Shown: piece after piece, positions 1-14,269 of the stretch
Numbering within the stretch: the stretch's first letter is position 1
Layout of the letters: each line of letters opens with the position of its first letter
Source: Deltaproteobacteria bacterium
GTDB lineage: Bacteria; SAR324; NAC60-12
Length of the DNA: 14,317 nt
NCBI GenBank assembly: GCA_038150265.1
Contig: JAYOTF010000056.1
Coordinates: forward strand, 1-14,317
Direction of reading: 5' to 3'
Made by a program: the position numbers and the translations under genes
Notes under the pieces: generated by a model
Told to the model about the DNA's origin: nothing
Seen by the model: the letters and a program-made list of their open reading frames with translations, nothing else
Database searches by the model: none

Positions 1-251
1 TTGAAGCTATAAACATAAGACCCATATAAACCAGTAGAATAATTTGGACTTAAGTTGTCAGAGTTATGGCTATAGTAATTGTCATTTCCGTATCCATCAT
101 TATAGCGAATCGATTGGAGTTTGTAATCACCGGATGGAATGTATTCCATAGAGATTTTACTCGAGTAATTAGAGGAGCTGGGTATATCTGTGCTCTCTGA
201 ACTACAACCGAAGAGGGATAAAATAAATATTATTGTAAAAATTTTTTTCAT
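1..251 (-). CDS. Putative lipoprotein, N-terminal part (runs off the left edge; not in the ORF track)
   Basis: Manual translation from ATG at 251-249 gives MKKIFTIIFILSLFGCSSESTDIPSSSNYSSKISMEYIPSGDYKLQSIRYNDGYGNDNYYSHNSDNLSPNYSTGLYGSYVYSF..., open to the window edge. It has a basic N-terminus, a hydrophobic core, a lipobox LFG-C and a Ser-rich tether. The DNA is markedly more AT-rich than the rest of the window. Confidence 0.8.
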   Translation of the reverse strand, partial: MKKIFTIIFILSLFGCSSESTDIPSSSNYSSKISMEYIPSGDYKLQSIRYNDGYGNDNYYSHNSDNLSPNYSTGLYGSYVYSF

Positions 252-645
252 TTTACGTAACTGTTCAGCCACCCTTGAGGGTGGATTCAAAAAACGGACT
301 CATCTGCCGATAAGCGGCTCATGGAACAACTTCCGAGCCTGAGCGGTCTCTCCACGAGGAGAAGGACGCGATCATCCATTCCCCAGACCGAGAGAAGTTC
401 ACCACGACCTTGTGAAGTCAGAAAGATCTGTCCGAAAAAGATAAAATCAAGGAAACGGAGTGGAGCTGAATGAGCAATCCCTCCAAGCGGCGCTTCGACC
501 AGGAAGCGAGGGCTTCTTTTAAGATCAGGAGTCCTCCTTCCTGTCACGGCGAGGGCATGATTGCACAGCAAACAACTGATTTAAAGATATTTTTCAGTGA
601 GTGAGCGGCCTCTGGTCCGGACTCCAAAGAGGTGGGACAAAATGC

Positions 646-689
646 AAAAAGCACAACCCCTGAATTCATCAGGGCTGGCTGGGTTTTTT
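646..689. terminator. Possible intrinsic terminator (possibly bidirectional) downstream of the minus-strand gene run
   Basis: Core inverted repeat CCCTGA-ATTCA-TCAGGG (658-674), flanked by AAAAA (646-650) and TTTTTT (684-689). The extended stem is imperfect. Confidence 0.35.
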
Positions 690-797
690 AGGAGATTAGG
701 GACAAAAATAGAAGTCGAGGAGGGACTGAAAAATTTTTCCAGGAAGGGGGGATTGGCTTTTCCGAATCGGAAAAAATCGGTCCGCTTCCCGCTGTGG

Positions 798-1016
798 CTA
801 CAGACACTCCTTGGGAGGAATCTCAGAGACAACGGTGCCGTAGACGTCACAGAAGACGCCCTCGGGCTGGGGATTCGGGGGAAGGGTTTCGGAGCCGTAC
901 CGCCCTTCGCGGGGCTGTGGTGAAGGAGCCGCAGGCGGCGGCGGGGTGGAGCAGTGCATGAGGACGGGGGCCAGCGCCATCAGGAGGACTGGAAGCGAGC
1001 GACGGAGGAGACTCAT
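798..1016 (-). CDS. Small Pro-rich putative lipoprotein (72 aa; alternative start at 1028 overlapping the upstream stop)
   Basis: C-terminal part of track ORF 798..1241: MSLLRRSLPVLLMALAPVLMHC-STPPPPAAPSPQP... It shows a signal peptide ending in Cys, a Pro linker and a short C-terminal region with two more Cys. It directly follows the Gfo gene (TGATG overlap at 1030-1026). Confidence 0.6.
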   Translation of the reverse strand: MSLLRRSLPVLLMALAPVLMHCSTPPPPAAPSPQPREGRYGSETLPPNPQPEGVFCDVYGTVVSEIPPKECL

Positions 1017-1027
1017 TTCAGGAGGCA

Positions 1028-2095
1028 TCAGCGAGTTGCAAGCGAAGAGAGGAAGACGGTCTGGTGGGTTTGCGTGGCCTGGTGAATGGCTGCCGTGATC
1101 TGAAGGTTCAGGAGGCCATCTCGGACACTGACCCGAGGCGCGGTGGCACCCCGGATGACGGCGGCAAAGTGGTCCATCTGCTTCTGAAGCGGGTCTTCTC
1201 GCCGCAGAGGCAGGGTTTCTTGCGAAAACTCCTCCCACCACGACCGACCTTCCGGCTCATCGTACCAGTGCATCCGCATGGTCGGGACGGCCAGGCTGCC
1301 CTGGGTTCCAGCGAGGAAGTAGCAGTCCTGATCCGGATGAGTGGGGTAGGCGGGATTTTCCTGACTGGTCTGCTCCCAGCTCCGGGGGCTGGCCGCGGTA
1401 TCAGAGAGCACGAAGCTGCCGAGGACACCGCTTTCAAACATGAGGGTGATGGCAACCGTGTCCTCCACATCAAACCCACGGGTGCTGTGACTCGCGAGGG
1501 CCTGAACGGCCTTCACCTCACCGCAGAGCATGCGGAGGTTGTGGACCTCGTGGATGAGGTTGATGAGGATCGGTCCGCCGCCAGCCTGCCGCCGCCACGG
1601 GCCTTCCTGAAAGTAGTGATCGGGCTTGAAGAAGAGGGCACTTCCCTGAACCGTCACCAGGCGCCCCAGGCGTCCGGACTGCACGACCTCCACCGCTTGC
1701 GCCATGATCGAGCTATGGGCCCGGTGGTGTCCCACGAGCACCCGGGCCTGGTGAGACTCCACCACGGCCATCAGCTGCCGGCCTTCTTCCACCGTCGTGG
1801 CCACCGGTTTTTCCAGCAACACCGCCACCCCGGCATCGACACAGTGAAGGGTCTGAGCAACGTGCAGGGCATTGGGCGTGGCCAGCACAATGCCGTCTGG
1901 CGGGTCCTGTTCCAGCAACCGGTCAAGGGTCTCATAATGAGTGGCGCCCCACTCAGAGGCGAGGGTCCGGGTTTCGGGATCGGGATCGACCAGGGCGACC
2001 AGGTTCAGGTCCGGATGCTTGCGGATGATGCCCGCGTGGGTGCGGCCGATGCTGCCCACACCGGCAACAGCCAAACGGAGCGGAGCGCGGTTCAT
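1028..2095 (-). CDS. Gfo/Idh/MocA family NAD(P)-dependent oxidoreductase
   Basis: Rossmann motif AVAGVGSIG, ATPNALH, LLEKP, VGHHR and GGGPILINLIH. GGAG Shine-Dalgarno just upstream of the ATG. Confidence 0.92.
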   Translation of the reverse strand: MNRAPLRLAVAGVGSIGRTHAGIIRKHPDLNLVALVDPDPETRTLASEWGATHYETLDRLLEQDPPDGIVLATPNALHVAQTLHCVDAGVAVLLEKPVATTVEEGRQLMAVVESHQARVLVGHHRAHSSIMAQAVEVVQSGRLGRLVTVQGSALFFKPDHYFQEGPWRRQAGGGPILINLIHEVHNLRMLCGEVKAVQALASHSTRGFDVEDTVAITLMFESGVLGSFVLSDTAASPRSWEQTSQENPAYPTHPDQDCYFLAGTQGSLAVPTMRMHWYDEPEGRSWWEEFSQETLPLRREDPLQKQMDHFAAVIRGATAPRVSVRDGLLNLQITAAIHQATQTHQTVFLSSLATR

Positions 2096-2225
2096 GGTTC
2101 TCCTACGGAAGAGGACTCCGAGTTTCCAGAAGGCCGGGTCGCCCGGAAATCGGGGAGGGAAAGTGCTGAATCACCACGCACCCTAGCGGAATTGGGGAAA
2201 CATTTCCAGCGCAAGCCCGCGGGGG

Positions 2226-4313
2226 CTACTTGTCCAGCAGGGTGATGACGCCCTTCCAGTCGTCCGGAGGCGGGTGAACCTCCCACTCCTGACAGAGCTG
2301 CCGGAAGAACTGAGCGGCCCCATCTTCCGGAAGGTGCCGGAGGCATTCCTGAAAGGTGGCCTGAGCACGAGGCCACTGCCGCTGCTGGAAGAAGCCGAGC
2401 CCTTCCTGAAAGCGCTCCAGCGTTTCCTGCTTGCGCATGGAACGGTCCGGATGGTCGGCGTCCAGGAGTTCATGGACCTCAATGGGCTGCTGATGGCCCT
2501 TGACCTGATAGGTGCCGAGGGGCCGCCAGTGGAAGGGCTCCTTCCGGACGAGGCTCCGGGTGGTGCCCGACGCGAGCACCCGAGCATCGAAGTACTTGGT
2601 CAGCATCTCCAGCCGTGAGGCGAGGTTGACGGAGTCCCCCAGCACCGTGGTTTCAATGCGCAGGGAGGTGCCCATGGTGCCGATCACGACGGGACCACTA
2701 TGGATGCCCACCCCGGCCACCAGGGCCGGAAATCCCCGAGGCTGCCACTCGGCATTGAACGCCCGCCGGGCTGCATGCATGGCAATGGCCGACCGGACCG
2801 CACAGAGCGCCTCAAAGTAGTCACTGCGCTCCGGCATGTCAAAGAGCGCCATCACGGCATCACCAATGAACTTGTCCACAAAGCCGTAGTGCTGCCCCAG
2901 TGGCGCACAGACGCGTTCGAGGTAGGCGTTGACAAAGTTCAGAAGCCGCTGGGGCTCCATCTGCTCCGAGAGGGACGTGAAGCTCCGGATATCCGAGAAG
3001 AGGATGGAGATGAAGTCGCTGTTGGCCTGCCCAATGCGGATGTTGTGGACGCCTTCTTCGGCCACCCGGTGCTGAAACTGGAGGGGCACAAACTTCTCAA
3101 AGACGTTGAGGGTGGCCCGGAGGTGTTCGTTTTGCTGCTGAATGACCGTCCGCATCTCCAGGTTCTTCAGGTTGGCCACGGTGATCCGAGCCAGGGTGGA
3201 GGTGAAGTCATGCAGGTGCGGGTTGAGGGGCTGAGCCGTGACGCTTCCGGAGAAATTCATCACCCCAATGAGCCGCTGTTGGTCGAGGAGGGGGACCACG
3301 ATCAGGAAGCGGGGAGTGCCTTCTCCCACAAAGTACTCGCATGCAGACGTGTCCGGGATCAGCAACAGGGTCTTGCTTTGGGCACACTGGCCGACGGCCC
3401 CCTCCCCCAGCTGAAAGGTCCGGGGTGGAGGCTGGGGAGGAGGAAGGTCGGGAAAGGAGTCTGACAGAAACAGCTGATTCTGCTCCGGGTCGTATTGATA
3501 AACCGAGCACCGCTCCACGGGGAGGTGCTGCTGAACCACACGGACCACGGTGTCGAGGGTCTCATGCTGCGAAATTTTGGACGCCAGGGTCTCAGCGGTT
3601 TCATTGAGCAACCGGAGGTCGTCAATCTGAGACTTGATGGCCACGCGCATGGACTCAAAGCTCTGGGCGAGGACCCCCAGCTCATCCTCGCGGTGCAGGT
3701 CGATCGGAGCATTGAGGTTCCCGGCAGCGAGGTCTTGAGCCGAGTGGATCAGGGTGGAGACGGGACGCTTGACGAGGTGGCGGATGATGAACCACTGGGC
3801 CAGCACCGTCAGGAGGAGGATGCCGATGGCTGCAACAAAGAGCTGCTGCAGGCTGTCCCAAAACTGGCGGGTCGCGTTTTCGCGCGTGACCACGAGGTGC
3901 ACCCGGCCTTCCACCTTTCCGGCGCGTCCGAGGGTGGTGTGGAGGTGGATCCAGTTGTGCTGGGCCGCGGAATGAATCAGCTCCTGGTGGTCGAGCCCCT
4001 GTGCGGCATTGCGCTGCTGGGCAAAGAGGACCTGGTCCTGGTTTTCCACGATCAGGGCCATGAAGTCCGGATCCGTCATGAAGGCGTTCACGACGGCCTT
4101 GATCTGACGCTGCTGGCGGTTCCAGACGGCTTCGTTGAGGGCCAGCTCTGCCGTCCGGAGGGTGTCCCAGGCCTTCTTGTTGAGCGCGTTGAGGGTCCGC
4201 TGATACGAAAGCCAGGAGACGCCCAGAGCACCGATCACCATGCCGACCACAATCACCAGCAGGGTGGCCGCATTGATGCGAGAGACAAGGCTGGAGGCAG
4301 AAAAGAGCTTCAT
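2226..4313 (-). CDS. Membrane-bound class III adenylate cyclase (TM-periplasmic sensor-TM-HAMP-GAF-cyclase-TPR-like tail); alternative TTG start at 4337
   Basis: Two hydrophobic helices (TLLVIVVGMVIGALGVSWL; LFVAAIGILLLTVLAQWFII), HAMP (RPVSTL...EDELGVLAQSFESM), GAF (LGEGAVGQCA...VVPLLDQQRLIGVM), and cyclase motifs ILFSDIRSFT, DKFIGDAVMA and GIHSG...ETTVLGDSVNLASRLE (Lys and Thr specifiers indicate ATP, class IIIb-like). C-terminal helical tail ...PPPDDWKGV. Confidence 0.93.
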   Translation of the reverse strand: MKLFSASSLVSRINAATLLVIVVGMVIGALGVSWLSYQRTLNALNKKAWDTLRTAELALNEAVWNRQQRQIKAVVNAFMTDPDFMALIVENQDQVLFAQQRNAAQGLDHQELIHSAAQHNWIHLHTTLGRAGKVEGRVHLVVTRENATRQFWDSLQQLFVAAIGILLLTVLAQWFIIRHLVKRPVSTLIHSAQDLAAGNLNAPIDLHREDELGVLAQSFESMRVAIKSQIDDLRLLNETAETLASKISQHETLDTVVRVVQQHLPVERCSVYQYDPEQNQLFLSDSFPDLPPPQPPPRTFQLGEGAVGQCAQSKTLLLIPDTSACEYFVGEGTPRFLIVVPLLDQQRLIGVMNFSGSVTAQPLNPHLHDFTSTLARITVANLKNLEMRTVIQQQNEHLRATLNVFEKFVPLQFQHRVAEEGVHNIRIGQANSDFISILFSDIRSFTSLSEQMEPQRLLNFVNAYLERVCAPLGQHYGFVDKFIGDAVMALFDMPERSDYFEALCAVRSAIAMHAARRAFNAEWQPRGFPALVAGVGIHSGPVVIGTMGTSLRIETTVLGDSVNLASRLEMLTKYFDARVLASGTTRSLVRKEPFHWRPLGTYQVKGHQQPIEVHELLDADHPDRSMRKQETLERFQEGLGFFQQRQWPRAQATFQECLRHLPEDGAAQFFRQLCQEWEVHPPPDDWKGVITLLDK

Positions 4314-4404: not shown

Positions 4405-6129
4405 TCAGTTGTCTTCCGGAGGCTCTTCGTTTTCGTGCTGCTTGCGGTTCCACTCCTCGCGCTGCTCATGGAACCAGTTGGTCAGCTTCTCGGCCAGTTC
4501 CGGACGCCCCAGCTGTTCAGCAGCGGCGAGCATCTGCTTGTAGAGTTCCGTCCGGGGCTCAATGTTGATGGCGTCTTCATAGAACTTGAGGGCCCGGACC
4601 GGGTCACCTGCAGCAATGTGCGCTTCCGCTTCCTTGACCTTTTCGGCAATCTGCCGAGAGCGCTCCTTGGTTTCCACCTCACTCAGGGTCTTCTTGAGCT
4701 CAGCAACGCGGTTTTCGTTTTCATCCTTGGTGTGCAGGACGATCAGCTTCTTGAGCGAAACCTTGTCCTTCTTGACCGAAATGGCCTGCTCAAGCAGCGC
4801 TGCCGCTCGGCTGAGGTCATCCTTGCTGATCGCATTTTCAGCCTCTTCGGCGAGCACCTGATGGAACTGGTGCCGAGCCTTGATCACTTCCGGAAGCCGG
4901 GGCGCCAGCCGTATGGCACGCCGCAGGGCCTGCAGGGCGTCTTCATAGGCCTTGTTGTCGAGGTGCAGCTGACTCAGCTTCAGGACGAGGAGGGCGTCAG
5001 CGAGCTCGTCCACCAGGGGGGTCAGCATCTCTGCGGCTTTCTTGGTGTTGCCCTTCTGCAGCTCCTCCTGAGCCAGGCTCAGGAAGCGGTCGAGGCTGTA
5101 GTCTCCCTGAGAGTGCTCCAGCAGCCGTGCCAGCTGAAAGAAGATGACGCGGGCCTGGGAGCTCTTGCCCTGCCGCCGGAGGAGGATGCCGTAGTTGACC
5201 AGGCCATAGCGGTGAGTGGGCTGGGCCTGCAGGAGCTTGCTGAGCAGCTCGCGCGCCTTGTCCGGGTGCCCCTGCTCGGCAATGGCACAGAGCAGGAAGC
5301 AGCGGAGGTCCACATTGTGGGAGTCATTCTTGAGGAGGCCTTCAAACAGGGCCCGCGCGGTGTCGTAGTCCCGCTCGTGCATGCAGTAGATGGCCATGTT
5401 GAGCAGGTAGGTCGGGATGCGCTCGGGTTCCGAGGCACGCTCCTCGACTTCCTGCTGGAGGCGCTGGAGGTCGATCTTTCCCGGCTCCACAGGAGTGGCG
5501 GAGGCTTCCTCCTCCGGGGCTGCGGCCTCTGGGGCCTCGGCCGGCTCATCACTGAGGATGCTGTCCACAAACGAGGGGCCACTGGCGTCCACGGTGCCTT
5601 CTGCTTCGCCTGCTTCCAGTTCGGGCTTGGAGGCTTCATAGATCTCCTGCAGCGCCTCCGGAGCAAGCTCCAGTTCGGGGAGTTTGAAGTCGGTCAGGTC
5701 TTCAAACGGCTTGACGGCAGAGACGGCGTTGTTGTCTTCGTAGTCGGTCTTGGCAATCGTCGCTGCGAGGTTGTAGGTCGCAAACTCGTTCCGGGGGTCC
5801 ACCTCGAGGCACCGCTTGTAGAGCTTCTTGGCCTGCTCGTAGCTCTCTTGCTTGCGGTAGGCGTTGGCGAGGATGTTGATCAGCTCAACATTGTTCTGGT
5901 CATACGAAAGCAGGTTGGTGCCGAGGGAGACGAGAGCGGCCGGGTCTCCGGAGGACTGGCTGTAGATGTCGAGGATGACGGGCATGGCGATTTCCTGATC
6001 CAACTGGAGCGCCTTCCGGAATTCGACCATGGCCCGGTCGTAAAACTTCCCCTCCAGGAGCTTGCGTCCGCTGCTGAGCGCCTGTTCTACTTCTTCGGAG
6101 GAGTCAATGGTAAATAGTTTTTCCAGCAT
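4405..6129 (-). CDS. Tetratricopeptide-repeat (TPR) protein
   Basis: Many TPR-like units (LANAYRKQESYEQAKKLYKRCLEVDP; YGLVNYGILLRRQGKSSQA; AYEDALQALRRAIRLAP; ALKFYEDAINIEP) interrupted by an acidic Glu/Ala/Pro linker. No signal peptide. Confidence 0.88.
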   Translation of the reverse strand: MLEKLFTIDSSEEVEQALSSGRKLLEGKFYDRAMVEFRKALQLDQEIAMPVILDIYSQSSGDPAALVSLGTNLLSYDQNNVELINILANAYRKQESYEQAKKLYKRCLEVDPRNEFATYNLAATIAKTDYEDNNAVSAVKPFEDLTDFKLPELELAPEALQEIYEASKPELEAGEAEGTVDASGPSFVDSILSDEPAEAPEAAAPEEEASATPVEPGKIDLQRLQQEVEERASEPERIPTYLLNMAIYCMHERDYDTARALFEGLLKNDSHNVDLRCFLLCAIAEQGHPDKARELLSKLLQAQPTHRYGLVNYGILLRRQGKSSQARVIFFQLARLLEHSQGDYSLDRFLSLAQEELQKGNTKKAAEMLTPLVDELADALLVLKLSQLHLDNKAYEDALQALRRAIRLAPRLPEVIKARHQFHQVLAEEAENAISKDDLSRAAALLEQAISVKKDKVSLKKLIVLHTKDENENRVAELKKTLSEVETKERSRQIAEKVKEAEAHIAAGDPVRALKFYEDAINIEPRTELYKQMLAAAEQLGRPELAEKLTNWFHEQREEWNRKQHENEEPPEDN

Positions 6130-6293
6130 CGTCTGTCTCGGAACGCTTGGAGCGGATCATCATCTTGGTGGCCAAAGGGAAGCCTGCGGGCCCCAGGGCG
6201 GCGTGAGGGGCTCCCATCTTGTGGAATCTCAAGCCTAGCAGAATCTGAAGATTCATGCATCTTTCAAGCCTTGTTGCTGCAGGGACGCACGGG

Positions 6294-6322
6294 TTGACCG
6301 AACCCGGGGAGCACGCTATAAC
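6294..6322 (+). promoter_or_regulatory. Sigma70-type promoter for the 142-aa gene
   Basis: TTGACC (6294-6299), 17-bp spacer, TATAAC (6317-6322), about 66 bp before ATG 6389. Confidence 0.6.
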
Positions 6323-6388
6323 CGGGGCAGGCAGGTCCGGCTTCCGAGCCCGGTCCACTCTGACAGCACCCCCTTCCCCACCGCGCTC

Positions 6389-6817
6389 ATGAAAGTCGAC
6401 GTTGCAAATTTCTGGATTGGCATCAGCTTCCCCAATCACCCCCTGACCGGCACCGATGAAGAAAAGGAGGCCCAGCAGGTCCGGATCCTCGAGTGCCTGC
6501 AGGAGGCCAAGGGGTGGTTTCACGAGTTCTGCCTCAGCCACCACCTCTTCCCGGAGGTGATGCGTCCGGGACCCGAACCCTTTGCACCGGAGCGGGCGGT
6601 GGATCCGATTGCCATCGTCTTCAATGGCTTCCGGAGCCTGGAGGTGACGTTTCCCCTGGAAGCCCTCAAAGGCAAGGAACTGGAGTTGGAGAGGACCGGA
6701 GCCGACTGGCGGATTGCTTGCTCCGAGATGGAAGTGGAGGCCGGAGGCGTTTGGGAACTTCAGGGAGACTGGACGTACGACTCCGTCATTGAAGACATGA
6801 AGAGGGGGCAGGGGTGA
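6389..6817 (+). CDS. Hypothetical protein (142 aa, acidic)
   Basis: ATG ORF with GC-rich third positions like its neighbours. It fills the gap between the TPR gene and the att repeat and has a good upstream promoter. No family recognised. Confidence 0.75.
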   Translation: MKVDVANFWIGISFPNHPLTGTDEEKEAQQVRILECLQEAKGWFHEFCLSHHLFPEVMRPGPEPFAPERAVDPIAIVFNGFRSLEVTFPLEALKGKELELERTGADWRIACSEMEVEAGGVWELQGDWTYDSVIEDMKRGQG

Positions 6818-6851
6818 GAAGTGGCGAGGAGACGTGAGCAAGAGAGGGCGG

Positions 6852-6886
6852 TGGTGGGCCAGGAGGGACTCGAGCCCCCGACCTAG
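6852..6886 (-). repeat. att-like direct repeat: displaced copy of the 3' 35 nt of tRNA-Ile2
   Basis: TGGTGGGCCAGGAGGGACTCGAGCCCCCGACCTAG matches 8704-8738 at 34/35 positions. The mismatch is at 6874, in the T-loop (TTC to CTC on the tRNA strand). Confidence 0.93.
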
Positions 6887-6933
6887 TAGTGATGAATCCA
6901 GCCTGATCCTGCAGGTGGAGGAATCCTGGCTGT

Positions 6934-6989
6934 TTTTAAGTTTACTCTAAAATAGCCTTGGCCACTTTAAAGTTCACTCTATAATGGCC
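6934..6989 (+). repeat. Imperfect 24-bp direct repeat (32-bp period) overlapping a candidate sigma70 promoter
   Basis: TTTTAAGTTTACTCTAAAATAGCC (6934-6957) vs TTTAAAGTTCACTCTATAATGGCC (6966-6989), 20/24 identical. Promoter match TTGGCC (6958-6963)-N16-TATAAT (6980-6985). Confidence 0.65.
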
Positions 6990-7115
6990 AGGAACTCCCG
7001 GAGCAGATGCCGGGGTGCCCCCACGAGCCTCCCTGGTCCGCTCATGAAGGGAGCAACCGGCAAATTTGCAAAATGCCGGTCACTGAATGAATCCACGTTT
7101 TTCACGCAATCCCCA

Positions 7116-8285
7116 ATGAGGTACCTCACTCCTTTTCTGCAACGTGACCTGACGCACAAAATGGTTTTTGTCGGTGGCCCACGACAGGTGGGCAAAACCA
7201 CCCTGGCAAAAGCAATTCTGGCACAACACCGGGCGGGAGGCTGCTACCTGAATTGGGATCATGATGAAGATCGCCAGCGTATTTTGCACAAAAAGTGGCT
7301 TCGCTCCGACCACCTGCTGGTGTTTGACGAGTTGCACAAGTATCCACAGTGGAAGCAGTGGCTCAAGGGGCTTTATGACACCCAGGCCGACCATCATGCC
7401 ATTTTGGTAACCGGCTCAGCACGGCTGGACCTCTATCGTCAGGGAGGCGATTCGCTCATGGGGCGTTACCACTACTGGCGGCTGCACCCCATGACGCTGG
7501 ATGAAGCACCCGTCGAGAACAGGGAGGCACTGCTGTCGCAACTCCTGACTTTGGGAGGTTTCCCTGAACCGCTCCTGCAAAATGACCTGCGTGAGGCAAA
7601 ACGGTGGCGGCGGGAACGCTTTGACCGGGTGCTGTTCGAGGACATTCGTGACCTCGAACCCATCCGGAATCTTCAATCGCTACGCCTGTTGACCGACTTG
7701 TTGCGCCAACGGGTGGGAAGCCTGGTGGTCATGAGCCATCTGGCCTCGGATCTTCAGGTGGCACCACAAACCGTCAAGTCGTGGATCGCTGCCCTGGAAC
7801 ACATGTATCTGCTGTTTCTGGTATCACCTTACACCCGAAAAATTTCCCGAGCGGTACAGAAGCCTCCGAAGATTTACTTCTATGACAATGCGGACGTGGT
7901 TGGAGACGAAGGGGCCCGTTTTGAAAACCTGGTGGCGAGCCACCTGTTGAAGTGGTTGCAGTTTCGGGAGGATTATGAAGGAGATCGCTGTCAACTCCAT
8001 TATCTGCGTGACAAGGAAGGGCGAGAAGTCGACTTTGTGGTGGAAGTGAATGGGGAGGTTGAAGAATTGATTGAAGTGAAGTGGGCTGATGCCGTGCCGT
8101 CACGGAGCTTGAAGTATTATCAGCGCCAGCTACAGCCGCTTCGCACCACCCAGATTGTCGCGCGACTCGGTTATGCGTATGAACAGGACGGCGTGCGTGT
8201 GCTGCCGGTGGCGGATTATTTCTCAGCCTCCCCCTGGAACCCTCCCCCCTCTCCAAGCAGCACCTCGGCTGGCAACGCCGCATGA
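7116..8285 (+). CDS. AAA+ ATPase with wHTH and C-terminal PD-(D/E)XK nuclease-like domain (AAA_14 + DUF4143 type)
   Basis: Walker A GPRQVGKT, Walker B LLVFDE, TGSA, SLMGR, GGFPE, HTH-like LASDLQVAPQTVKSWIAALE, PKIYFYD, FENLV and EVDFVV...LIEVK. The start is moved from 6984 to ATG 7116 (MRYL...) because family members begin about 20 aa before Walker A. Confidence 0.92.
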   Translation: MRYLTPFLQRDLTHKMVFVGGPRQVGKTTLAKAILAQHRAGGCYLNWDHDEDRQRILHKKWLRSDHLLVFDELHKYPQWKQWLKGLYDTQADHHAILVTGSARLDLYRQGGDSLMGRYHYWRLHPMTLDEAPVENREALLSQLLTLGGFPEPLLQNDLREAKRWRRERFDRVLFEDIRDLEPIRNLQSLRLLTDLLRQRVGSLVVMSHLASDLQVAPQTVKSWIAALEHMYLLFLVSPYTRKISRAVQKPPKIYFYDNADVVGDEGARFENLVASHLLKWLQFREDYEGDRCQLHYLRDKEGREVDFVVEVNGEVEELIEVKWADAVPSRSLKYYQRQLQPLRTTQIVARLGYAYEQDGVRVLPVADYFSASPWNPPPSPSSTSAGNAA

Positions 8286-8354
8286 GCGGATGAGGGTGCA
8301 AAGATCGGCACAGTTTCTCTCAAAAGTGGCTTCCAGTCCACATTGAAAATCTGG

Positions 8355-8555
8355 TCAGCCACGAGAAGAAACGTAAAAAGGTGATTTCTTGATGCTGTCT
8401 GTCAACTCATCATCGAACAAGTCAGCAGTCTCATCCCACCCTTTCAGCAATCCTTCCGTGGTGATGGTACCGGGCCCCGTATTCTTGCAGAAGATTTCCT
8501 GCTCCAGCCGATCTGGATCAAGGTTTGAGTTTTTAACCCCGAAAAAGTTTGGCAT
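8355..8555 (-). CDS. Small acidic hypothetical protein (66 aa), islet cargo
   Basis: A strong Shine-Dalgarno AAGGAGG lies 4 nt before ATG 8555 (MPNFFGVKNSNLDPDRLEQEIFCK...). It lies within track ORF 8355..8639 and is convergent with the ATPase. Confidence 0.6.
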   Translation of the reverse strand: MPNFFGVKNSNLDPDRLEQEIFCKNTGPGTITTEGLLKGWDETADLFDDELTDSIKKSPFYVSSRG

Positions 8556-8703
8556 CAGGCCTCCTTGTTGTGGGTTCCTCACATAATATGATGTCTCCTT
8601 GAAATGGAAATTCAAAGAAACCGGACACATAAGATACATATCAGAGGTGGCACAATTTCTTGCGGAAGGCTATGCCAAGCTACACCTAAACCACTGAAAT
8701 CAT

Positions 8704-8780
8704 TGGTGGGCCAGGAGGGACTCGAACCCCCGACCTAGCGATTATGAGTCGCCAGCTCTAACCAACTGAGCTACTGGCCC
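8704..8780 (-). tRNA. ileX: tRNA-Ile2 (CAT anticodon, lysidine-modified, reads AUA)
   Basis: Reverse complement GGGCCAG TA GCTC AGTTGGTTA GAGC T GGCGA CTCATAA TCGCT AGGTC GGGGG TTCGAGT CCCTC CTGGCCC ACCA forms a 77-nt cloverleaf with encoded CCA. The G1-C72 pair and the absence of three consecutive G-C anticodon-stem pairs exclude fMet. The anticodon arm GGCGACTCATAATCGCT matches E. coli tRNA-Ile2 as I recall it. Elongator Met is less likely. Confidence 0.93.
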
Positions 8781-8795
8781 ATGAGGAAGCCATCC

Positions 8796-8824
8796 AGTAT
8801 AAGAGGTGTGGGGGTGTTTGGAAA
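8796..8824 (-). promoter_or_regulatory. Candidate sigma70 promoter of the tRNA gene
   Basis: Minus strand TTTCCA (8824-8819)-N17-TATACT (8801-8796), 15 nt upstream of the tRNA 5' end. Confidence 0.5.
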
Positions 8825-8836
8825 GCAAAACCCGGC

Positions 8837-11089
8837 TCATGAGGACGTCTGAGGGTTCAGGTGCCGGGGCAGGGTGAGGCGAAAGCAGGTGCCCGGTTGC
8901 TGATCGGTGCGGTTGTGGACGGTGAGCCGTCCCCCATGGAGGTGGGCAAGATCGCGGGAAATGGCAAGCCCCAGCCCCGTGCCCTGGTCTTCCGGCTTGG
9001 TGGTGAAGTCGGGCTCAAAGACCCGCTCTCGCAAGGCACTGGGGATGCCGGGGCCCTGATCGGAGATGAGGAGGTGGAGGAAGGAAGGGGTTTCTTCCAC
9101 CCGCCACTCAATGAGCTGCTGCTCCCGAGGCTGCTCGCTCATGGCATCTGCGGCATTGTTGGTCAGGTTCATGAGGATTTGCTGAATCTCCACCTTGACC
9201 ACGGGAATCAGGAGGGGGGCCTCAGGGAAATGGAGGTGCAGCCGCACCTCTCGCAGAGTTGGCTCAATGAGCGCGTGGGTCTCCCGAAGCAGCTCCCCGA
9301 CTTCCATCCACTGGGGCTCCGGACGGGAGCCCTCTTCCCGCACATAGTGCCGGAGGCGGTTCAGGACATCAGTAATGGTGGACGTGGCAGACTCAATGAG
9401 GGACAGGGCAGGGGAGTCGCTTGCCTGAGGCCGAAGCAGGTCCACTCCCATGGAGATCGTTGCCAGGGGCGTGCGGAGGTCATGCGCAAGCTGCCGAACG
9501 AGGAGCTTGAGGCCGTTGATGCGGTCGAGGTGCATGAGCTGCGAGCGTTGCTTGCGCAGCTCCTCAAGCCGCTTCTGCTCTTCCGTGATGTCGCGGGTGA
9601 TGCCGACCAGCAGTTGCCGTCCCGAGTGCGACATCCAACGGGCGTGGCTTTCCACCGTGATGCGCTTGCCAGAGGGCAGGTTGAGCCGAAAGGTGCTCTG
9701 GGGGTACTCCTGCCCCTCCTTGATGTGCTCGCGGATGCGCCGGTCCTGCTCCTCATCTTCTGGCGCCAGCCGCTGGCACCACGCTTCTCCAAAGTCTTCC
9801 TCCACCTCAATTTCCAGCAAGCGCCGCTGAGACTCGGTGTAGGTGGTGTGGAGCGTGTGCGGGTCAAAGGTGAAGATGCCAAACGCGTTCGCTTCCTGGG
9901 CCAACCGGAGGATCTCCAGCTGTTCCTGAATCTTCTGCTCCTGGGCTTCCTCAGCCTCAACGTCCCGGTAGGTCGAAATGAGGGCCTGCTCGCCGCCGTA
10001 TTCAATGAATTCGGTATTGACGCGGATGGGAAAGCGCCGACCACGCAGGTCCTGAACGGCAATGCGGTAGTTCTTGAGGTGCCCCTGCTGCTGCAGGGTC
10101 TGAAGCATGGGCTGTCGGTCTTCCGGGTTCTGGTAGAGGTTGGGCACCGGTTGTCCCATCAGGTGCTCGCGGGTGGTGCCCGCCAGGCGGGCCATCTCAT
10201 CGTTGGCAAACAGCACCATCCCGTCTTCCTGCCGGGTGACCATCAGCGGCTGCACGGAGCACTCCAGCGCGGCTGCGAGTCGAGCGTGTGTGAGCTGATT
10301 CTCGGCCACGTCTTCCTGGTGCATCCGGATCAGCTCCTGAACGTCTTCCTTGTGAATCTGCAGCACCTCCAGCAGGTCGGCATAGGGGCTCCCCTCCGGA
10401 AGCTGGGGCAGCGGCTGGGAAAAGGCCTCCTGGTCCAGGGTCCAGCGGGAGAGGGATTCGTGGATCAGGTTCAGCGCCTTGGAATCGGCAGTGCACAGGG
10501 GTTCAAAGTGTGGCAGGTGCAGGGGCTGGTGGCTGAGCAGCTCGAGGAGGGTCGCGTCGAGGTCTTCAACGATGGCGATCTTCTGCTTCAGGGGCTCCGG
10601 TGTGGCCAGCAGGACCCCCTTGGCGATCCACTTGGTGGCAGGAGAGATCCGGACGGCGTAGGCTTCGGCCTCTGGGAGGATCAGCTGCAGGCGCTTCACA
10701 AACTCCCAGCGGCTTTTGAGCGTGGACCCGCTCAGGTTCAGGAAGTCACTGAGGTAGCTGACGGGGCCAGGGAGCGTTTGCCGGATCGCCCACTGCAGCT
10801 CTCCGACTGCTCGAGTCTCGTTTCCCTCAAAGACCCCCACTCCCCGACTGACGATGACCGTATCGTTGATCACGGCGAGATCCGAGCGGGAGTTCTGGCC
10901 CTGGCAGCTCCACTCCTGTTCGCGCCGCACCCAGATGCGGGTTCCGGCAAGGGAAAGCTCCTGAACCCCATGGGGGCTCTGAAAAATGAGATCGAAGGCC
11001 TGTGCGTGGGGCAAGAATGCAGCTGGGTGACACCAGTCCGGCGGAAGGGGCCTGGCAAGGTAACAGCAGGTCTGTATCTTGCCTACCAT
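8837..11089 (-). CDS. Cytoplasmic PAS-PAS sensor histidine kinase with an uncharacterised N-terminal domain
   Basis: H-box LAHDLRTPL, N-box QILMNLTNNAADA, G1 ISDQGPGI, F-box VFEPDFTTK and G2 GTGLGLAIS. Two PAS/PAC domains (VLFANDEMARLAG...TYRDV; GIFTFD...LVGITRDITE). No transmembrane helix. The start codon is uncertain. Confidence 0.92.
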   Translation of the reverse strand: MVGKIQTCCYLARPLPPDWCHPAAFLPHAQAFDLIFQSPHGVQELSLAGTRIWVRREQEWSCQGQNSRSDLAVINDTVIVSRGVGVFEGNETRAVGELQWAIRQTLPGPVSYLSDFLNLSGSTLKSRWEFVKRLQLILPEAEAYAVRISPATKWIAKGVLLATPEPLKQKIAIVEDLDATLLELLSHQPLHLPHFEPLCTADSKALNLIHESLSRWTLDQEAFSQPLPQLPEGSPYADLLEVLQIHKEDVQELIRMHQEDVAENQLTHARLAAALECSVQPLMVTRQEDGMVLFANDEMARLAGTTREHLMGQPVPNLYQNPEDRQPMLQTLQQQGHLKNYRIAVQDLRGRRFPIRVNTEFIEYGGEQALISTYRDVEAEEAQEQKIQEQLEILRLAQEANAFGIFTFDPHTLHTTYTESQRRLLEIEVEEDFGEAWCQRLAPEDEEQDRRIREHIKEGQEYPQSTFRLNLPSGKRITVESHARWMSHSGRQLLVGITRDITEEQKRLEELRKQRSQLMHLDRINGLKLLVRQLAHDLRTPLATISMGVDLLRPQASDSPALSLIESATSTITDVLNRLRHYVREEGSRPEPQWMEVGELLRETHALIEPTLREVRLHLHFPEAPLLIPVVKVEIQQILMNLTNNAADAMSEQPREQQLIEWRVEETPSFLHLLISDQGPGIPSALRERVFEPDFTTKPEDQGTGLGLAISRDLAHLHGGRLTVHNRTDQQPGTCFRLTLPRHLNPQTSS

Positions 11090-11226
11090 AATCGGTTGAC
11101 GCGATCTGTCAACTTGGGAGATTCACGTAGTTTCCTGCTTGACTTGGTGGCGCAAAAGGAGTTCGCTTGTGAACCTGGCTCCGCCACCGTGTTGTTACCC
11201 TCTCCCCTTATTCCAGAAAGTAGACC

Positions 11227-12651
11227 ATGCCCAGTCCTCACAGTGCCAGCAACAGCATCATCGTCCGGCTCAAGCTCGATAACGAGGTTGGCGTTCTTGC
11301 CAAAGTGACGCAAAAGATTTCTGACCTTGGCGGCAACATCGGGGCCATTGACCTCGTTCGCCCGGAAGCCGGGTTCCTCATCCGGGACATCAACGTGTTC
11401 ACTCGGGACGTGGAGCACGGGCGCTGCATTGTTGAGGCCCTCAAGGAACTGGAGCATGTGGAGTTCATCAACTTCTCCGATCGGGTCTTCCTGGCTCACC
11501 TGAAAGGGAAGATGGAAATCGCGCCCCGCATTCCCCTCAAAACCCGCGACGACCTCTCCATTGCCTACACCCCGGGGGTCGCTCGGGTCTGCATGGCCAT
11601 TCATGAAAATCCGGAAGACGCCTACAAGCTCACCATCAAGGGCAATACCGTGGCGGTGGTCACGGATGGCACCGCGGTGCTGGGCCTGGGAGACATCGGC
11701 CCCAAGGCCGGCATGCCGGTGATGGAAGGCAAGGCCATGCTCTTCAAGCAGTTTGCCGGCATTGACGCCTGGCCGATCTGCCTGGATACCAAAGACACCG
11801 AGGAGATCATCCGGACCGTCAAGGCCATTGCACCAGGCTTTGGAGGCATCAACCTGGAAGACATCTCGGCGCCCCGCTGCTTTGAGATTGAGCGTCGCCT
11901 GCAGGAAGAGCTGGACATCCCGGTGTTTCATGACGACCAGCATGGCACGGCCGTTGTGACCACCGCTGCCCTCATCAACGCCCTCAAACTGGTGGGCAAG
12001 AAGGCGGAAGACGTCAAGGTGGTGGTCTCCGGAACCGGTGCAGCGGGAACCGCATGTGCCAAGATGATCTATGGCCTGGGAGTCCGGAACCTGATCGGCT
12101 GCGATCGCTCCGGAGTGGTGCATGCTGGGCGTGACGACATCAATGATGAAGCCAAGCAGTGGTTTGCTCACACCGCCAATCCGCATCAGGAGACCGGGAC
12201 GCTCAAGGACGTGATTGCGGGCGCAGATGTCTTCATTGGGGTGTCTGCTCCCGGTGTGTTGAACGCGGAAGATGTGCAGAAAATGGCCGACCAGGCGATT
12301 GTCTTTGCCATGGCCAACCCGACTCCCGAGATCATGCCCGAGGAGGCGCTGCCTTATGTGGCGGTGATGGCCACCGGCCGGAGCGACTACCCCAACCAGA
12401 TCAACAATGTGCTCTGTTTCCCCGGAATTTTCCGCGGAGCTCTTGATTCTTTGGCCACGACCATCAACATGGAAATGCAGCTTGCTGCAGCCCAAGCCAT
12501 TGCAGAAACCATCGAGGAACAGCACCTCAACCCGGATTACATCATTCCGAGCGTCTTCGACCCTTCCATTGCCCCGAAAATTTCGGCGGCTGTGCAAGAG
12601 GCCGCACAGCGCACCGGAGTGGCGCGCAAGGCCGCGAATTCGGACCTCTGA
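11227..12651 (+). CDS. NAD(P)-dependent malic enzyme with N-terminal ACT domain
   Basis: ACT-like IVRLKLDNEVGVLAKVTQKISDLGGNI. Malic enzyme motifs AYTPGV, VTDGTAVLGLGDIG, MEGK, NLEDI, FHDDQHGTA, GTGAAG, FAMANP and ATGRSDYPNQINN. No phosphotransacetylase domain, so it is not MaeB-type. Confidence 0.95.
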   Translation: MPSPHSASNSIIVRLKLDNEVGVLAKVTQKISDLGGNIGAIDLVRPEAGFLIRDINVFTRDVEHGRCIVEALKELEHVEFINFSDRVFLAHLKGKMEIAPRIPLKTRDDLSIAYTPGVARVCMAIHENPEDAYKLTIKGNTVAVVTDGTAVLGLGDIGPKAGMPVMEGKAMLFKQFAGIDAWPICLDTKDTEEIIRTVKAIAPGFGGINLEDISAPRCFEIERRLQEELDIPVFHDDQHGTAVVTTAALINALKLVGKKAEDVKVVVSGTGAAGTACAKMIYGLGVRNLIGCDRSGVVHAGRDDINDEAKQWFAHTANPHQETGTLKDVIAGADVFIGVSAPGVLNAEDVQKMADQAIVFAMANPTPEIMPEEALPYVAVMATGRSDYPNQINNVLCFPGIFRGALDSLATTINMEMQLAAAQAIAETIEEQHLNPDYIIPSVFDPSIAPKISAAVQEAAQRTGVARKAANSDL

Positions 12652-12687
12652 GGGGCAGCCTCTCACCTTGTCTGAATCAGGAAACCC

Positions 12688-13137
12688 ATGTTGAAGCTCA
12701 AGACGCTGTTGCTGACCGGATTGGTCAGTGTTGCTTTCACCGCCACCCCCCTCTTTGCCAATGACGCTGAAACCGTCATCAAGTACCGCAAGGCGGTCTA
12801 CACCTCCATGAAGGGGCACATGGGAGCGATTGTGGGGATTTTGAAGGGAGGGCTGACCGACTACCAGGGGCACCTGGCAGACCATGCCGCTTCTTTGGAA
12901 AATTCCGCCCGGATCATTCCGGCCCTGTTTCCGGAAGGCTCCGATCAGGGGGACACCGATGCCGACCCGAAGATCTGGAGCGACCGAGCAGGCTTTGAAA
13001 AGGCCGCTCAGCGTCTGGAAGCGGCGAGTCAGGAGCTGCTGGCGGCGGCTCAGTCCGGAGACATGCGGGCCGTTGGAAAAGCCGTTGGACAGGTGGGGGG
13101 CTCCTGCAAGGGGTGCCACGATACCTACCGTAAATGA
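12688..13137 (+). CDS. Cytochrome c' (class II four-helix cytochrome c)
   Basis: Signal peptide ending PLFA, N-terminal helix IKYRKAVY, LFPEGS...TDADPKIW, and C-terminal heme motif CKGCHDTYRK. Confidence 0.93.
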   Translation: MLKLKTLLLTGLVSVAFTATPLFANDAETVIKYRKAVYTSMKGHMGAIVGILKGGLTDYQGHLADHAASLENSARIIPALFPEGSDQGDTDADPKIWSDRAGFEKAAQRLEAASQELLAAAQSGDMRAVGKAVGQVGGSCKGCHDTYRK

Positions 13138-14033
13138 GGCACCGCCTGAAGCTGGCAGTGCTGCTGCCAGCGTGCTGCTTCAGCCTCTTGGCGCATGCCC
13201 GGACCCCAGACCCCATTGCCGGGGAACAGGTGTTCCACGCGGCGGGCGGCTGTGGCTGTCACACGGACACGGATGGCAACGGAGCGTTTCTCGCTGGGGG
13301 ACGCCCGATTCCCACGCCTTTCGGCCTCTTTTACTCGACGAACATCACGCCCGATCCCCAAGCCGGCATCGGTGGCTGGAGCGATGACGACTTCCTCCGG
13401 GCCATGACCGAAGGCACGGGTCCGGACGGCACCCATTACTTCCCTGTTTTCCCCTATACCTCCTTCAGTCAGATGACGCAGGAGGACCTGCTGCACCTGA
13501 AGGACTACCTGGACACGGTTCCCGCTGTGAACCAGCCCGACCGGCCTCATGAGGTGCCCTTTCCCTTTAATCTGCGCATCGGAGCCTGGTTCTGGAAACT
13601 CGTGAACCATCACCCGGAGCCACTGGAGCCCGATCCGACTCAAACGGATTCGTGGAACCGAGGGCGCTACCTGACCGAAGCGGTGGCGCACTGTGGAGAG
13701 TGCCACACTCCCCGAAACCTGATGGGAGCCCTGAGGCGTGACCTCGCCTACGCCGGCGCGGAGGACGGCCCAGAGGGAGAGTCGGCCCCGAACATCACTC
13801 CGGATCCGAAGACCGGCATTGGCGACTGGTCGAAAGCGGACCTGGTGTATGCCCTGGAAGTCGGGATGCTTCCGGACGGTGACTTTGTCGGAGGCCTGAT
13901 GGGGCTGGCGGTGGATCACTATCAGCAGTTGCCTCCGGAAGACCTGGAAGCCATTGCCGAGTACGTCCTGTCTCTGCCTCCGGTGGTCAACCAAGTCGGC
14001 AAGCCCAAGGAAAGCGGTGAGTCGGCGTGGTGA
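13134..14033 (+). CDS. Periplasmic diheme cytochrome c (CycG-like, related to gluconate/alcohol dehydrogenase cytochrome subunits)
   Basis: ATGA overlap with the cytochrome c' stop and a signal peptide ending AHA. Motifs GGCGCHT, LAGG...TPFG.FYSTNITPD...GIGGWS, FPYTSF, RGRYL...HCGECHTPRN, APNITPD and GGLM. Confidence 0.92.
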   Translation: MRHRLKLAVLLPACCFSLLAHARTPDPIAGEQVFHAAGGCGCHTDTDGNGAFLAGGRPIPTPFGLFYSTNITPDPQAGIGGWSDDDFLRAMTEGTGPDGTHYFPVFPYTSFSQMTQEDLLHLKDYLDTVPAVNQPDRPHEVPFPFNLRIGAWFWKLVNHHPEPLEPDPTQTDSWNRGRYLTEAVAHCGECHTPRNLMGALRRDLAYAGAEDGPEGESAPNITPDPKTGIGDWSKADLVYALEVGMLPDGDFVGGLMGLAVDHYQQLPPEDLEAIAEYVLSLPPVVNQVGKPKESGESAW

Positions 14034-14071
14034 CGCCCGCTCCCCAACCGACAGCCTGATCCACGCCTGAG

Positions 14072-14099
14072 CTGGGGGCGAGTTTCTTCTCGCCTCCAG
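14072..14099. terminator. GC-rich hairpin downstream of the cytochrome genes
   Basis: CTGGGGGCGAG-TTTCTT-CTCGCCTCCAG forms an 11-bp stem with one G-U pair. There is no U-tract, so it may be a transcript-stabilising stem rather than an intrinsic terminator. Confidence 0.35.
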
Positions 14100-14269
14100 A
14101 GCGCCAGCAGTCCCTCTGCAGCCCTTTCTCAAAGCCCCCCACCCGCTTCTGAACCCTACCGCCTCCATGCCCGTTATGGGGCCATGCGCTTCGTTTTGGG
14201 CCTGGGGCCCACAGGCTCGCTTCGTCTCACCTTACCGGGTTTGACGGGATGACGTGCGGTCGGTCGCTC

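Follow-up and report, generated by a model that had tools for sequence, protein, structure and literature searches.

A two-gene, recombinase-less islet beside the tRNA-Ile2 gene of a SAR324 genome, probably a product of site-specific insertion

How does a two-gene segment of some 1.85 kb that has no recombinase come to lie between an intact tRNA gene and a displaced copy of its 3' end? This question is raised by contig JAYOTF010000056.1 of assembly GCA_038150265.1 from a Deltaproteobacteria bacterium (GTDB lineage Bacteria; SAR324; NAC60-12), a metagenome-derived draft of 3.39 Mb in 87 contigs with a GC content of 0.61, here named G000. The window analysed was this entire contig (14317 nt; C56 of the assembly), and the segment, designated the islet, is placed between two copies of the 3' part of a tRNA-Ile2 gene. 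The islet is probably a non-autonomous product of site-specific insertion into tRNA-Ile2, flanked by attachment (att) sites and similar to the cis-mobilizable elements (CIMEs). The comparison set comprised 88 genomes of the phylum including G000 (87 others), and three of them constitute the genus (G000, G001 and G002).

The repeat finder detected a direct repeat of 47 nt with 87% identity between positions 6852-6898 and 8704-8750, with a start-to-start spacing of 1852 nt. The right copy, attL-like, is the 3' 47 nt of an intact tRNA-Ile2 gene (8704-8780, reverse strand, anticodon CAT, CCA encoded), recognized by ARAGORN and Rfam. The left copy, on the same strand, is a displaced partial tRNA-Ile2 3' end, attR-like, as indicated by the repeat finder, a shuffle test and the alignment to the empty site of G002 described below. 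Over the first 35 nt the two copies show a single mismatch (6874 G, 8726 A), which in the tRNA sense is T54C in the displaced copy, and the inner 12 nt of that copy, corresponding to tRNA-sense positions 30-41 and extending to the anticodon loop, are degenerate (7/12 matching). The local alignment of the tRNA 3' half with the downstream DNA scored 65, and the maximum among shuffled sequences was 24 (n = 100). An earlier interpretation of this DNA, made from the letters alone (the sequence-only reading), had described a 35-bp duplication of the tRNA 3' end with one mismatch, and both the repeat finder and the shuffle test bear it out. Among the 42 tRNA and tmRNA genes of G000, tRNA-Ile2 is the only one with a tail that recurs outside another tRNA gene. 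At up to three mismatches the 35-mer was found in 3 of the 88 phylum genomes, all of this genus, and two copies are present only in G000. Inside the islet, Rfam reported nothing besides the tRNA and two sub-threshold chance matches.

Three tRNAs with anticodon CAT are encoded in G000 (contigs C54, C21 and C56). That of C56 (8704-8780) has the pairs G3-C70, C4-G69 and C5-G68; the one of C54 has C1/A72 together with A11/G12, an initiator pattern, and both this tRNA and that of C21 have C3-G70. Discriminators between the types of CAT tRNA, including tRNA-Ile(CAT), are given in PMC1635315, and since the C56 tRNA is not of the initiator type and its three acceptor pairs fit the discriminators described there, it is assigned to the tRNA-Ile(CAT) type, tRNA-Ile2. 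The acceptor stem thus upholds the identity first proposed for this gene. The tRNA-Ile2 sequence is 100% identical between G000 and its congener G001. The gene of G002 (L004:1387-1463) does not encode the 3' CCA, which is present in G001 and in both repeat copies of G000.

The site without the islet was found in congener G002. Window positions 6367-6886 and 8706-14000 align to one contiguous stretch of that genome (L004 925-1421 and 1389-6709, respectively) at about 79-80% identity, and both repeat copies of G000 map to the same 33 nt of its single tRNA; G002 is therefore an empty site. The order in G002 is a gene of 142 aa, then directly the tRNA, then a histidine kinase gene, and there is no islet. 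In G000 the gene of 142 aa (6389-6817, forward strand) is the left flanking core gene; it belongs to no known family (Pfam, NCBIfam and PHROG all without a match) and, of 31 related genomes, three encode it, each belonging to this genus. The right flanking core gene (8837-11089, reverse strand) encodes, according to Pfam, a histidine kinase with PAS, HisKA and HATPase_c domains. In G001, tRNA-Ile2 is located in a different neighbourhood and lacks a tail repeat within 32 kb. Its 142-aa gene and its tRNA-Ile2 are on separate contigs (C13 and C44) with unrelated neighbours, so that synteny is broken, and a tblastx similarity that seemed to run past the G001 tRNA proved spurious when inspected.

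Public contigs of four metagenome runs were aligned to window positions 6000-9600, and pieces of the islet were present in all four. In contig 26 of run X6 (352 nt, depth 7.9), position 6851 is followed immediately by 8704, so that 1852 nt are missing; 71 clean letters precede the joint on the left and the tRNA lies to its right. The islet pieces of the same run have depths of 2.4-3.0. Occupied and empty forms appear to coexist, both in run X6. The empty site that the sequence-only reading had predicted was accordingly encountered twice, in G002 and in this contig. The same reading had proposed a hotspot with variable cargo, for which the data give no backing: the three genomes of the genus comprise one occupied site, one empty site and one rearranged neighbourhood without the repeat, and no alternative cargo at tRNA-Ile2 was found in these genomes or in the four runs.

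A metagenome draft in 87 contigs, and tRNA sequences that are common to community members (depth of the tRNA bin 96-3896 in the runs examined), could lead to a foreign fragment being joined at a short repeat during assembly. Against such an origin, both flanks of the insert show synteny with G002 on one contig, and the left junction is spanned by public contigs of other runs (X17 record 9, 6000-7021, 1022 nt; X5 record 18 likewise), as is the right junction (X1 record 5, 8567-8881; X1 may be the source sample). Record 15 of X17 covers 30 nt of the tRNA and misses the bridging rule by a single nucleotide. A fragment with a tRNA tail at both ends would also be required. An assembly artefact is an unlikely origin of the structure, and the joining of a foreign fragment at the repeat is considered extremely improbable.

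The repeats enclose two convergent open reading frames (ORFs) separated by a spacer of 69 nt. The first (7116-8285, forward strand) encodes a protein of 389 aa, the ATPase-nuclease, with a P-loop domain (AAA_14), a winged-helix region and a domain of the PD-(D/E)XK type (DUF4143) (Pfam, PADLOC); the second (8355-8555, reverse strand) encodes a small acidic protein of 66 aa. On the outer sides are two non-coding arms: the left arm (6899-7115, forward strand, 217 nt), where a promoter-like site (6958-6985, TTGGCC-16-TATAAT, 10/12 consensus matches) precedes the ATPase gene, and the right arm (8556-8703, reverse strand, 148 nt), where another such site (8610-8583) precedes the small gene. Both genes, each with its own promoter-like site, look intact. 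No recombinase domain was detected by Pfam in any ORF of the window, and PF00589 is absent from the islet ORFs; the arms, of 148 and 217 nt, are too short to hold a recombinase remnant. The extent of about 1.8 kb, the two convergent ORFs and the lack of a recombinase had all been noticed in the sequence-only reading, and the spacing of 1852 nt, the Pfam search and the frame scan mentioned below are in agreement with it. Being devoid of a recombinase, the islet would be unable to move by itself.

The islet is foreign in composition. Its GC content is 0.49-0.56, compared with 0.60-0.64 in the flanks, and the GC content at third codon positions (GC3) is 0.63 in the ATPase gene and 0.55 in the small gene, compared with 0.76-0.81 in four of the five neighbours measured; the fifth, an ORF of 678 aa at 11083-13119, has a GC3 of 0.62. 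The motif TCCGGA, over-represented in this genome with 2.86 occurrences per kb, is present once in the 1817-nt islet (5.2 expected), and only 4.7% of genome windows of the same size hold one occurrence or none, a modest support for foreignness.

The repeat with an intact tRNA and the empty site are features of tRNA-targeting integrative elements that are found at this locus, and the internal integrase is not. The arrangement would be explained if a foreign segment of about 1.85 kb had been spliced into the 3' part of tRNA-Ile2 by site-specific recombination of the tyrosine-integrase type. The incoming attachment site would have borne a copy of the tRNA 3' end, and the insertion would have regenerated the intact tRNA (8704-8780) and shifted the partial copy (6852-6898) to the opposite end of the insert; the inner 12 degenerate bases of the displaced copy may represent the tRNA-like arm of the element itself. 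The islet could then have been left by loss of the integration module, or by excision of an autonomous tandem partner. The T-loop mismatch had previously been taken as a sign that the islet is now fixed. The substitution T54C was possibly inherited from the attachment site of the element (attP), so that it is uninformative on fixation, and the seeming co-occurrence of both forms in X6 does not favour fixation.

Several results weigh against insertion followed by loss of the integration module or of a partner. At up to five mismatches no further copy of the 35-mer att sequence exists anywhere in the 3.39-Mb assembly, and the att sequence is absent outside the genus among the 88 phylum genomes. 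Neither the left arm (best match at chance level, E 2.4e-4) nor the right arm has a relative in the 87 other genomes of the phylum. No gene or pseudogene trace of an integrase was found in the stop-to-stop frames of 8286-8703. The genome-wide search for a tRNA-Ile-targeting integrase that had been recommended yielded five PF00589 matches on four contigs (C35, C14 with two pieces, C68 and C45), none of them on C56 and each without a tRNA over about 25 kb of the contig around it. Viral contigs did not contain the repeat core, and scans of metagenome and viral contigs with single proteins for a parent element gave nothing. With no att copy elsewhere, arms without relatives and a core absent from viral contigs, no parent element was identified, in genome collections that are small for this phylum. 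With regard to contig 26 of X6, 19 of 127 letters differ on the tRNA-upstream side, so that its source is a diverged lineage or, past the shared tRNA, another member of the genus, and its joint could in principle be a path through the assembly graph (k presumably 31) by way of a strain with a perfect 35-nt repeat. The last point concerns the relatives of the ATPase. A scan based on alignments gave 80 metagenome loci with relatives 44-65% identical to the islet ATPase, and the neighbours were surveyed at the 26 loci with at least 3 kb upstream and at least 2.5 kb downstream; L041 and L043 (both with the layout of L040) and L083 (with that of L048) were omitted, together with the 13 most distant ORFs, and 135 ORFs of at least 150 aa from 23 loci remained. 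None of these 135 ORFs has an integrase or serine recombinase domain. The relatives are thus usually recombinase-less, which fits routes other than the decay of a classical island.

One such route is that of an active non-autonomous cassette that never had an integrase and was moved in trans by a visiting helper element targeting tRNA-Ile2. The retention of both att copies, the very compact layout free of pseudogene debris, the presence of occupied and empty forms together in X6 at the depths given above, and the integrase-less state of all 23 loci examined would be expected of it. In addition, 51 of the 80 loci entered a screen for flanking repeats from which short contigs and truncated matches were excluded, and among the 42 with at least 400 nt on both sides, three are flanked by exact repeats (24 nt in L052, 18 nt in L109 and 17 nt in L066) that delimit units of about 2.0-2.1 kb; the maximum in a reversed-sequence control was 13 nt. 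On the other hand, neither the assembly nor the 88 phylum genomes yielded a helper that shares this att, and the empty-site contig seems to derive from a diverged lineage and not from excision in the same strain. There was no circle junction among the contig joints, which could hardly show one, as contigs are in principle unable to reveal excised circles. Moreover, only 5 of the 80 loci contain a tRNA, and no tRNA-tail repeat above shuffles was detected beside the ATPase relatives at these five (L042, L049, L064 and L082 among those checked). Mobilization in trans is considered possible and rather unlikely as the origin of this islet.

When extended, the three flanking repeats reach 24 nt (L052), 57 nt (L109, 82% identity) and 147 nt (L066, 88% identity), and such variable lengths are among the points that would suit a selfish, homing-like gene, in which cleavage of a target by the PD-(D/E)XK nuclease would be followed by copying of the gene into it, with repeats as by-products. 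The family is patchily distributed among taxa, one genome holding as many as 11 paralogues, and the relatives appear as lone insertions among housekeeping genes in most of the 23 loci. However, paralogues within a genome are only 25-46% identical, which argues against recent bursts, and the gene is single-copy in G000. The repeat geometry at tRNA-Ile2 is exactly that of tRNA-targeting integrases, and an unrelated gene, that of the 66-aa protein, travels with the ATPase here and is never linked to it at the other 82 loci. No transposase or homing family is known to have the AAA_14 and DUF4143 architecture. A homing-like origin is therefore regarded as very improbable, and site-specific insertion into tRNA-Ile2 is retained as the probable origin.

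Other observations were made at the loci of the ATPase relatives. The repeat-flanked units are L052:2909-4920, L109:2763-4854 and L066:5572-7867, and in the L109 unit two small ORFs were also recognized by eye, one resembling an antitoxin of the ribbon-helix-helix (RHH) type and the other a RelE-type toxin. Housekeeping genes make up most of the neighbours, with one piece resembling an ISL3 transposase (L036). In L036 and L074 the relative lies beside the same housekeeping cluster (coaBC, dut and phosphoglucomutase), at opposite ends. In L049 (5700-12225) a relative with 56% identity is located 225 nt past tRNA-Pro(TGG), ahead of a tRNA-Arg/His/Lys cluster, and is followed by genes with HATPase_c_3, DUF5343 and HEPN_Swt1 domains.

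The ATPase-nuclease gave Pfam E-values of 2.1e-25 for AAA_14 and 2.9e-28 for DUF4143, and PADLOC assigned it to PDC-S01 with values down to 4.6e-56. The ATPase-nuclease cargo recognized in the sequence-only reading is confirmed by these two domains. Its start Met at 7116 coincides with the position where homologues begin, and all the invariant columns of 42 homologues are present (GGPxQVGKTT; D71, with E72, of Walker B; D306...E320-x-K322). DUF4143/COG1373 is listed as a PD-(D/E)XK family in PMC3424549. The AlphaFold model has a predicted local distance difference test (pLDDT) value of 83. It resembles STAND and archaeal AAA+ ATPases: its N-terminal 120-260 residues match an AVAST5 filament (Z 11.5), EfAvs5 and, from archaea, 2fna and 2qen (Z values of 10.8 and 10.7 over about 237 residues). 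The Foldseek matches include RuvB, Orc1/Cdc6 and Hda. These fold searches were filled by the ATPase domain, and the C-terminal nuclease domain was barely probed by them. No sequence relative of the protein was found in the PDB. The gene is absent from both congeners (0/2), and its closest counterpart within the phylum, with 58-60% identity, comes from a genome of a different family. The best public matches, 81% and 77% identical, are on short contigs, and the next ones (60-66%) are from Thiothrix, Cocleimonas, Electrothrix, Myxococcota and others. At E ≤ 1e-30 the ATPase was found in 3 of 72556 plasmid records; among 50697 phage records there were 4 matches, with identities up to 27%.

According to these data, the protein is a predicted NTP-dependent nuclease of the candidate anti-phage family PDC-S01, apparently intact. 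It matches the hidden Markov models (HMMs) of the family and shares its AAA_14 and DUF4143 architecture, and it differs in a Pro/Ser-rich C-terminal tail of 15 aa that is unique to the islet ATPase. PDC-S01 is presented in PMC12988326 as the fourth most common prokaryotic candidate system, an ATPase fused to a PD-(D/E)XK nuclease, with validation pending. In the preprint 10.1101/2024.09.26.614923, a PDC-S01 representative was one of eight candidates assayed in Escherichia coli B with the phages T7, T5 and T4; the four described there as protecting do not include it. The defence function attributed to the islet by the sequence-only reading is accordingly reduced to a candidate label, since PDC-S01 is unvalidated and the representative tested in print gave no protection. 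Classification of the ATPase-nuclease as a defence gene is thus tentative and somewhat doubtful. The islet offers a natural two-gene construct for probing anti-phage or anti-plasmid activity of this common, unvalidated family.

The small gene has an AAGGAGG ribosome-binding site 4 nt before its ATG. An HMMER scan of 1.84 billion representative sequences gave 27 matches at E ≤ 1e-3, one being its own cluster and 26 being weak relatives from public metagenomes, so that the "orphan" of the sequence-only reading is a member of an unnamed family; a word-based search had returned only the protein itself. Most of the 26 relatives are 63-74 aa long, and their alignments begin at residue 29 of the 94-aa frame; this shared alignment start fixes the start codon of the 66-aa protein at 8555. 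The named relatives, MBF0236681.1 and MBF0605706.1 among them, are "hypothetical proteins" of metagenome-assembled genomes of SAR324, Nitrospirae and Magnetococcales. The protein contains 12 D/E and 7 K/R residues, and its model consists of three helices (pLDDT 78). No match of the family was found in Pfam, PHROG, PADLOC or NCBIfam, and 24 members searched against Pfam at E ≤ 1 gave nothing beyond chance. The model has no structural neighbours in the PDB (Foldseek, VIA-align) or in BFVD, the protein atlas offered no lead (best score 0.83), and tblastn against phages and plasmids gave no match. Among the 88 phylum genomes the profile was detected in one, G000 itself. A conserved pairing of this protein with the ATPase was considered and rejected, as the profile was found at 0 of 82 other loci holding ATPase relatives. 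A public contig of 1598 nt encodes the same 66-aa protein over 60 residues and then a different C-terminus, which places the start of the variant sequence near 8375, between the islet genes.

Islets flanked by att sites and lacking an integrase, as well as defence cargo linked to tRNA genes, are already well described. With the P4-type and other tyrosine-integrase islands at tRNA genes, the islet has in common a duplicated segment that runs from the variable region to the CCA, a regenerated tRNA and a foreign insert; it differs from them in being far smaller and in having no integrase. Sublocation classes of integration sites within tRNA genes were reportedly defined by Williams in 2002. The CIMEs, known from streptococcal ICEs (integrative and conjugative elements) and IMEs (integrative and mobilizable elements), likewise keep both att copies at the 3' end of a target gene. 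They are defined in PMC5704250 as elements flanked by attL and attR without integration or transfer genes, and in the accretion model set out there they can arise by decay or in tandem accretions. Unlike them, the islet has no known related ICE or IME, resides in an uncultured host from another phylum, measures 1.85 kb with two genes and has att sites that are putative. Elements flanked by partial tRNAs, together with degenerate remnants, are reported from marine bacteria in 10.1101/2020.12.28.424599. These tycheposons, from genomic islands of Prochlorococcus, resemble the islet in being marine, in targeting tRNA genes and in leaving partial tRNAs on both sides; according to that report, their remnants and partial tRNAs are scattered in islands and their cargo includes defence genes. 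In contrast, the islet lacks the tycheposon integrase and replication modules, and it is a single islet with tRNA-Ile2 as target, not an island containing several partial tRNAs.

A broader proposal is that PDC-S01 genes travel as minimal recombinase-less cassettes that are captured at tRNA 3' ends or short repeats by integrases acting in trans. It seems quite improbable; if it were true, a cassette economy similar to that of integrons or tycheposons would extend across distant phyla, and the islet would be an intact, still mobilizable example with a 66-aa partner. The locus provides a base-resolved case, with clear boundaries, of genes acquired beside a tRNA in a marine phylum that has received little study and, with the occupied and the empty site both in hand, is a good test case for the origin of integrase-less islets. 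The conserved family of the 66-aa protein, which has no name, and the repeated occurrence of PDC-S01 genes without a recombinase are the points that deserve attention.

Some minor features of the window complete the description. In the left arm, two adjacent similar units of about 24-31 nt were recognized by eye at 6935-6996 (about 20/24 matching, with one indel), each with a -10-like box (TAAAAT and TATAAT); they could be tandem promoters or arm-type protein-binding sites. Tandem Repeats Finder reported no repeats in this arm, these units included. In the right arm, one contig of run X17 (depth 4.4) joins 8588 to 8704, dropping 115 nt beside the tRNA, with a shorter side of 30 letters, and it may reflect either a deletion within this arm or another neighbouring sequence. 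At the edge of the contig, the first 800 nt or so (1-800) have a GC content of 0.40-0.49, compared with about 0.62 elsewhere, and contain only small ORFs (89-147 aa) without a Pfam match; they may constitute a second foreign stretch. At the other end, positions 11083-14168 encode two ORFs of 678 and 347 aa, without a match in Pfam or NCBIfam, yet conserved and collinear in G002.

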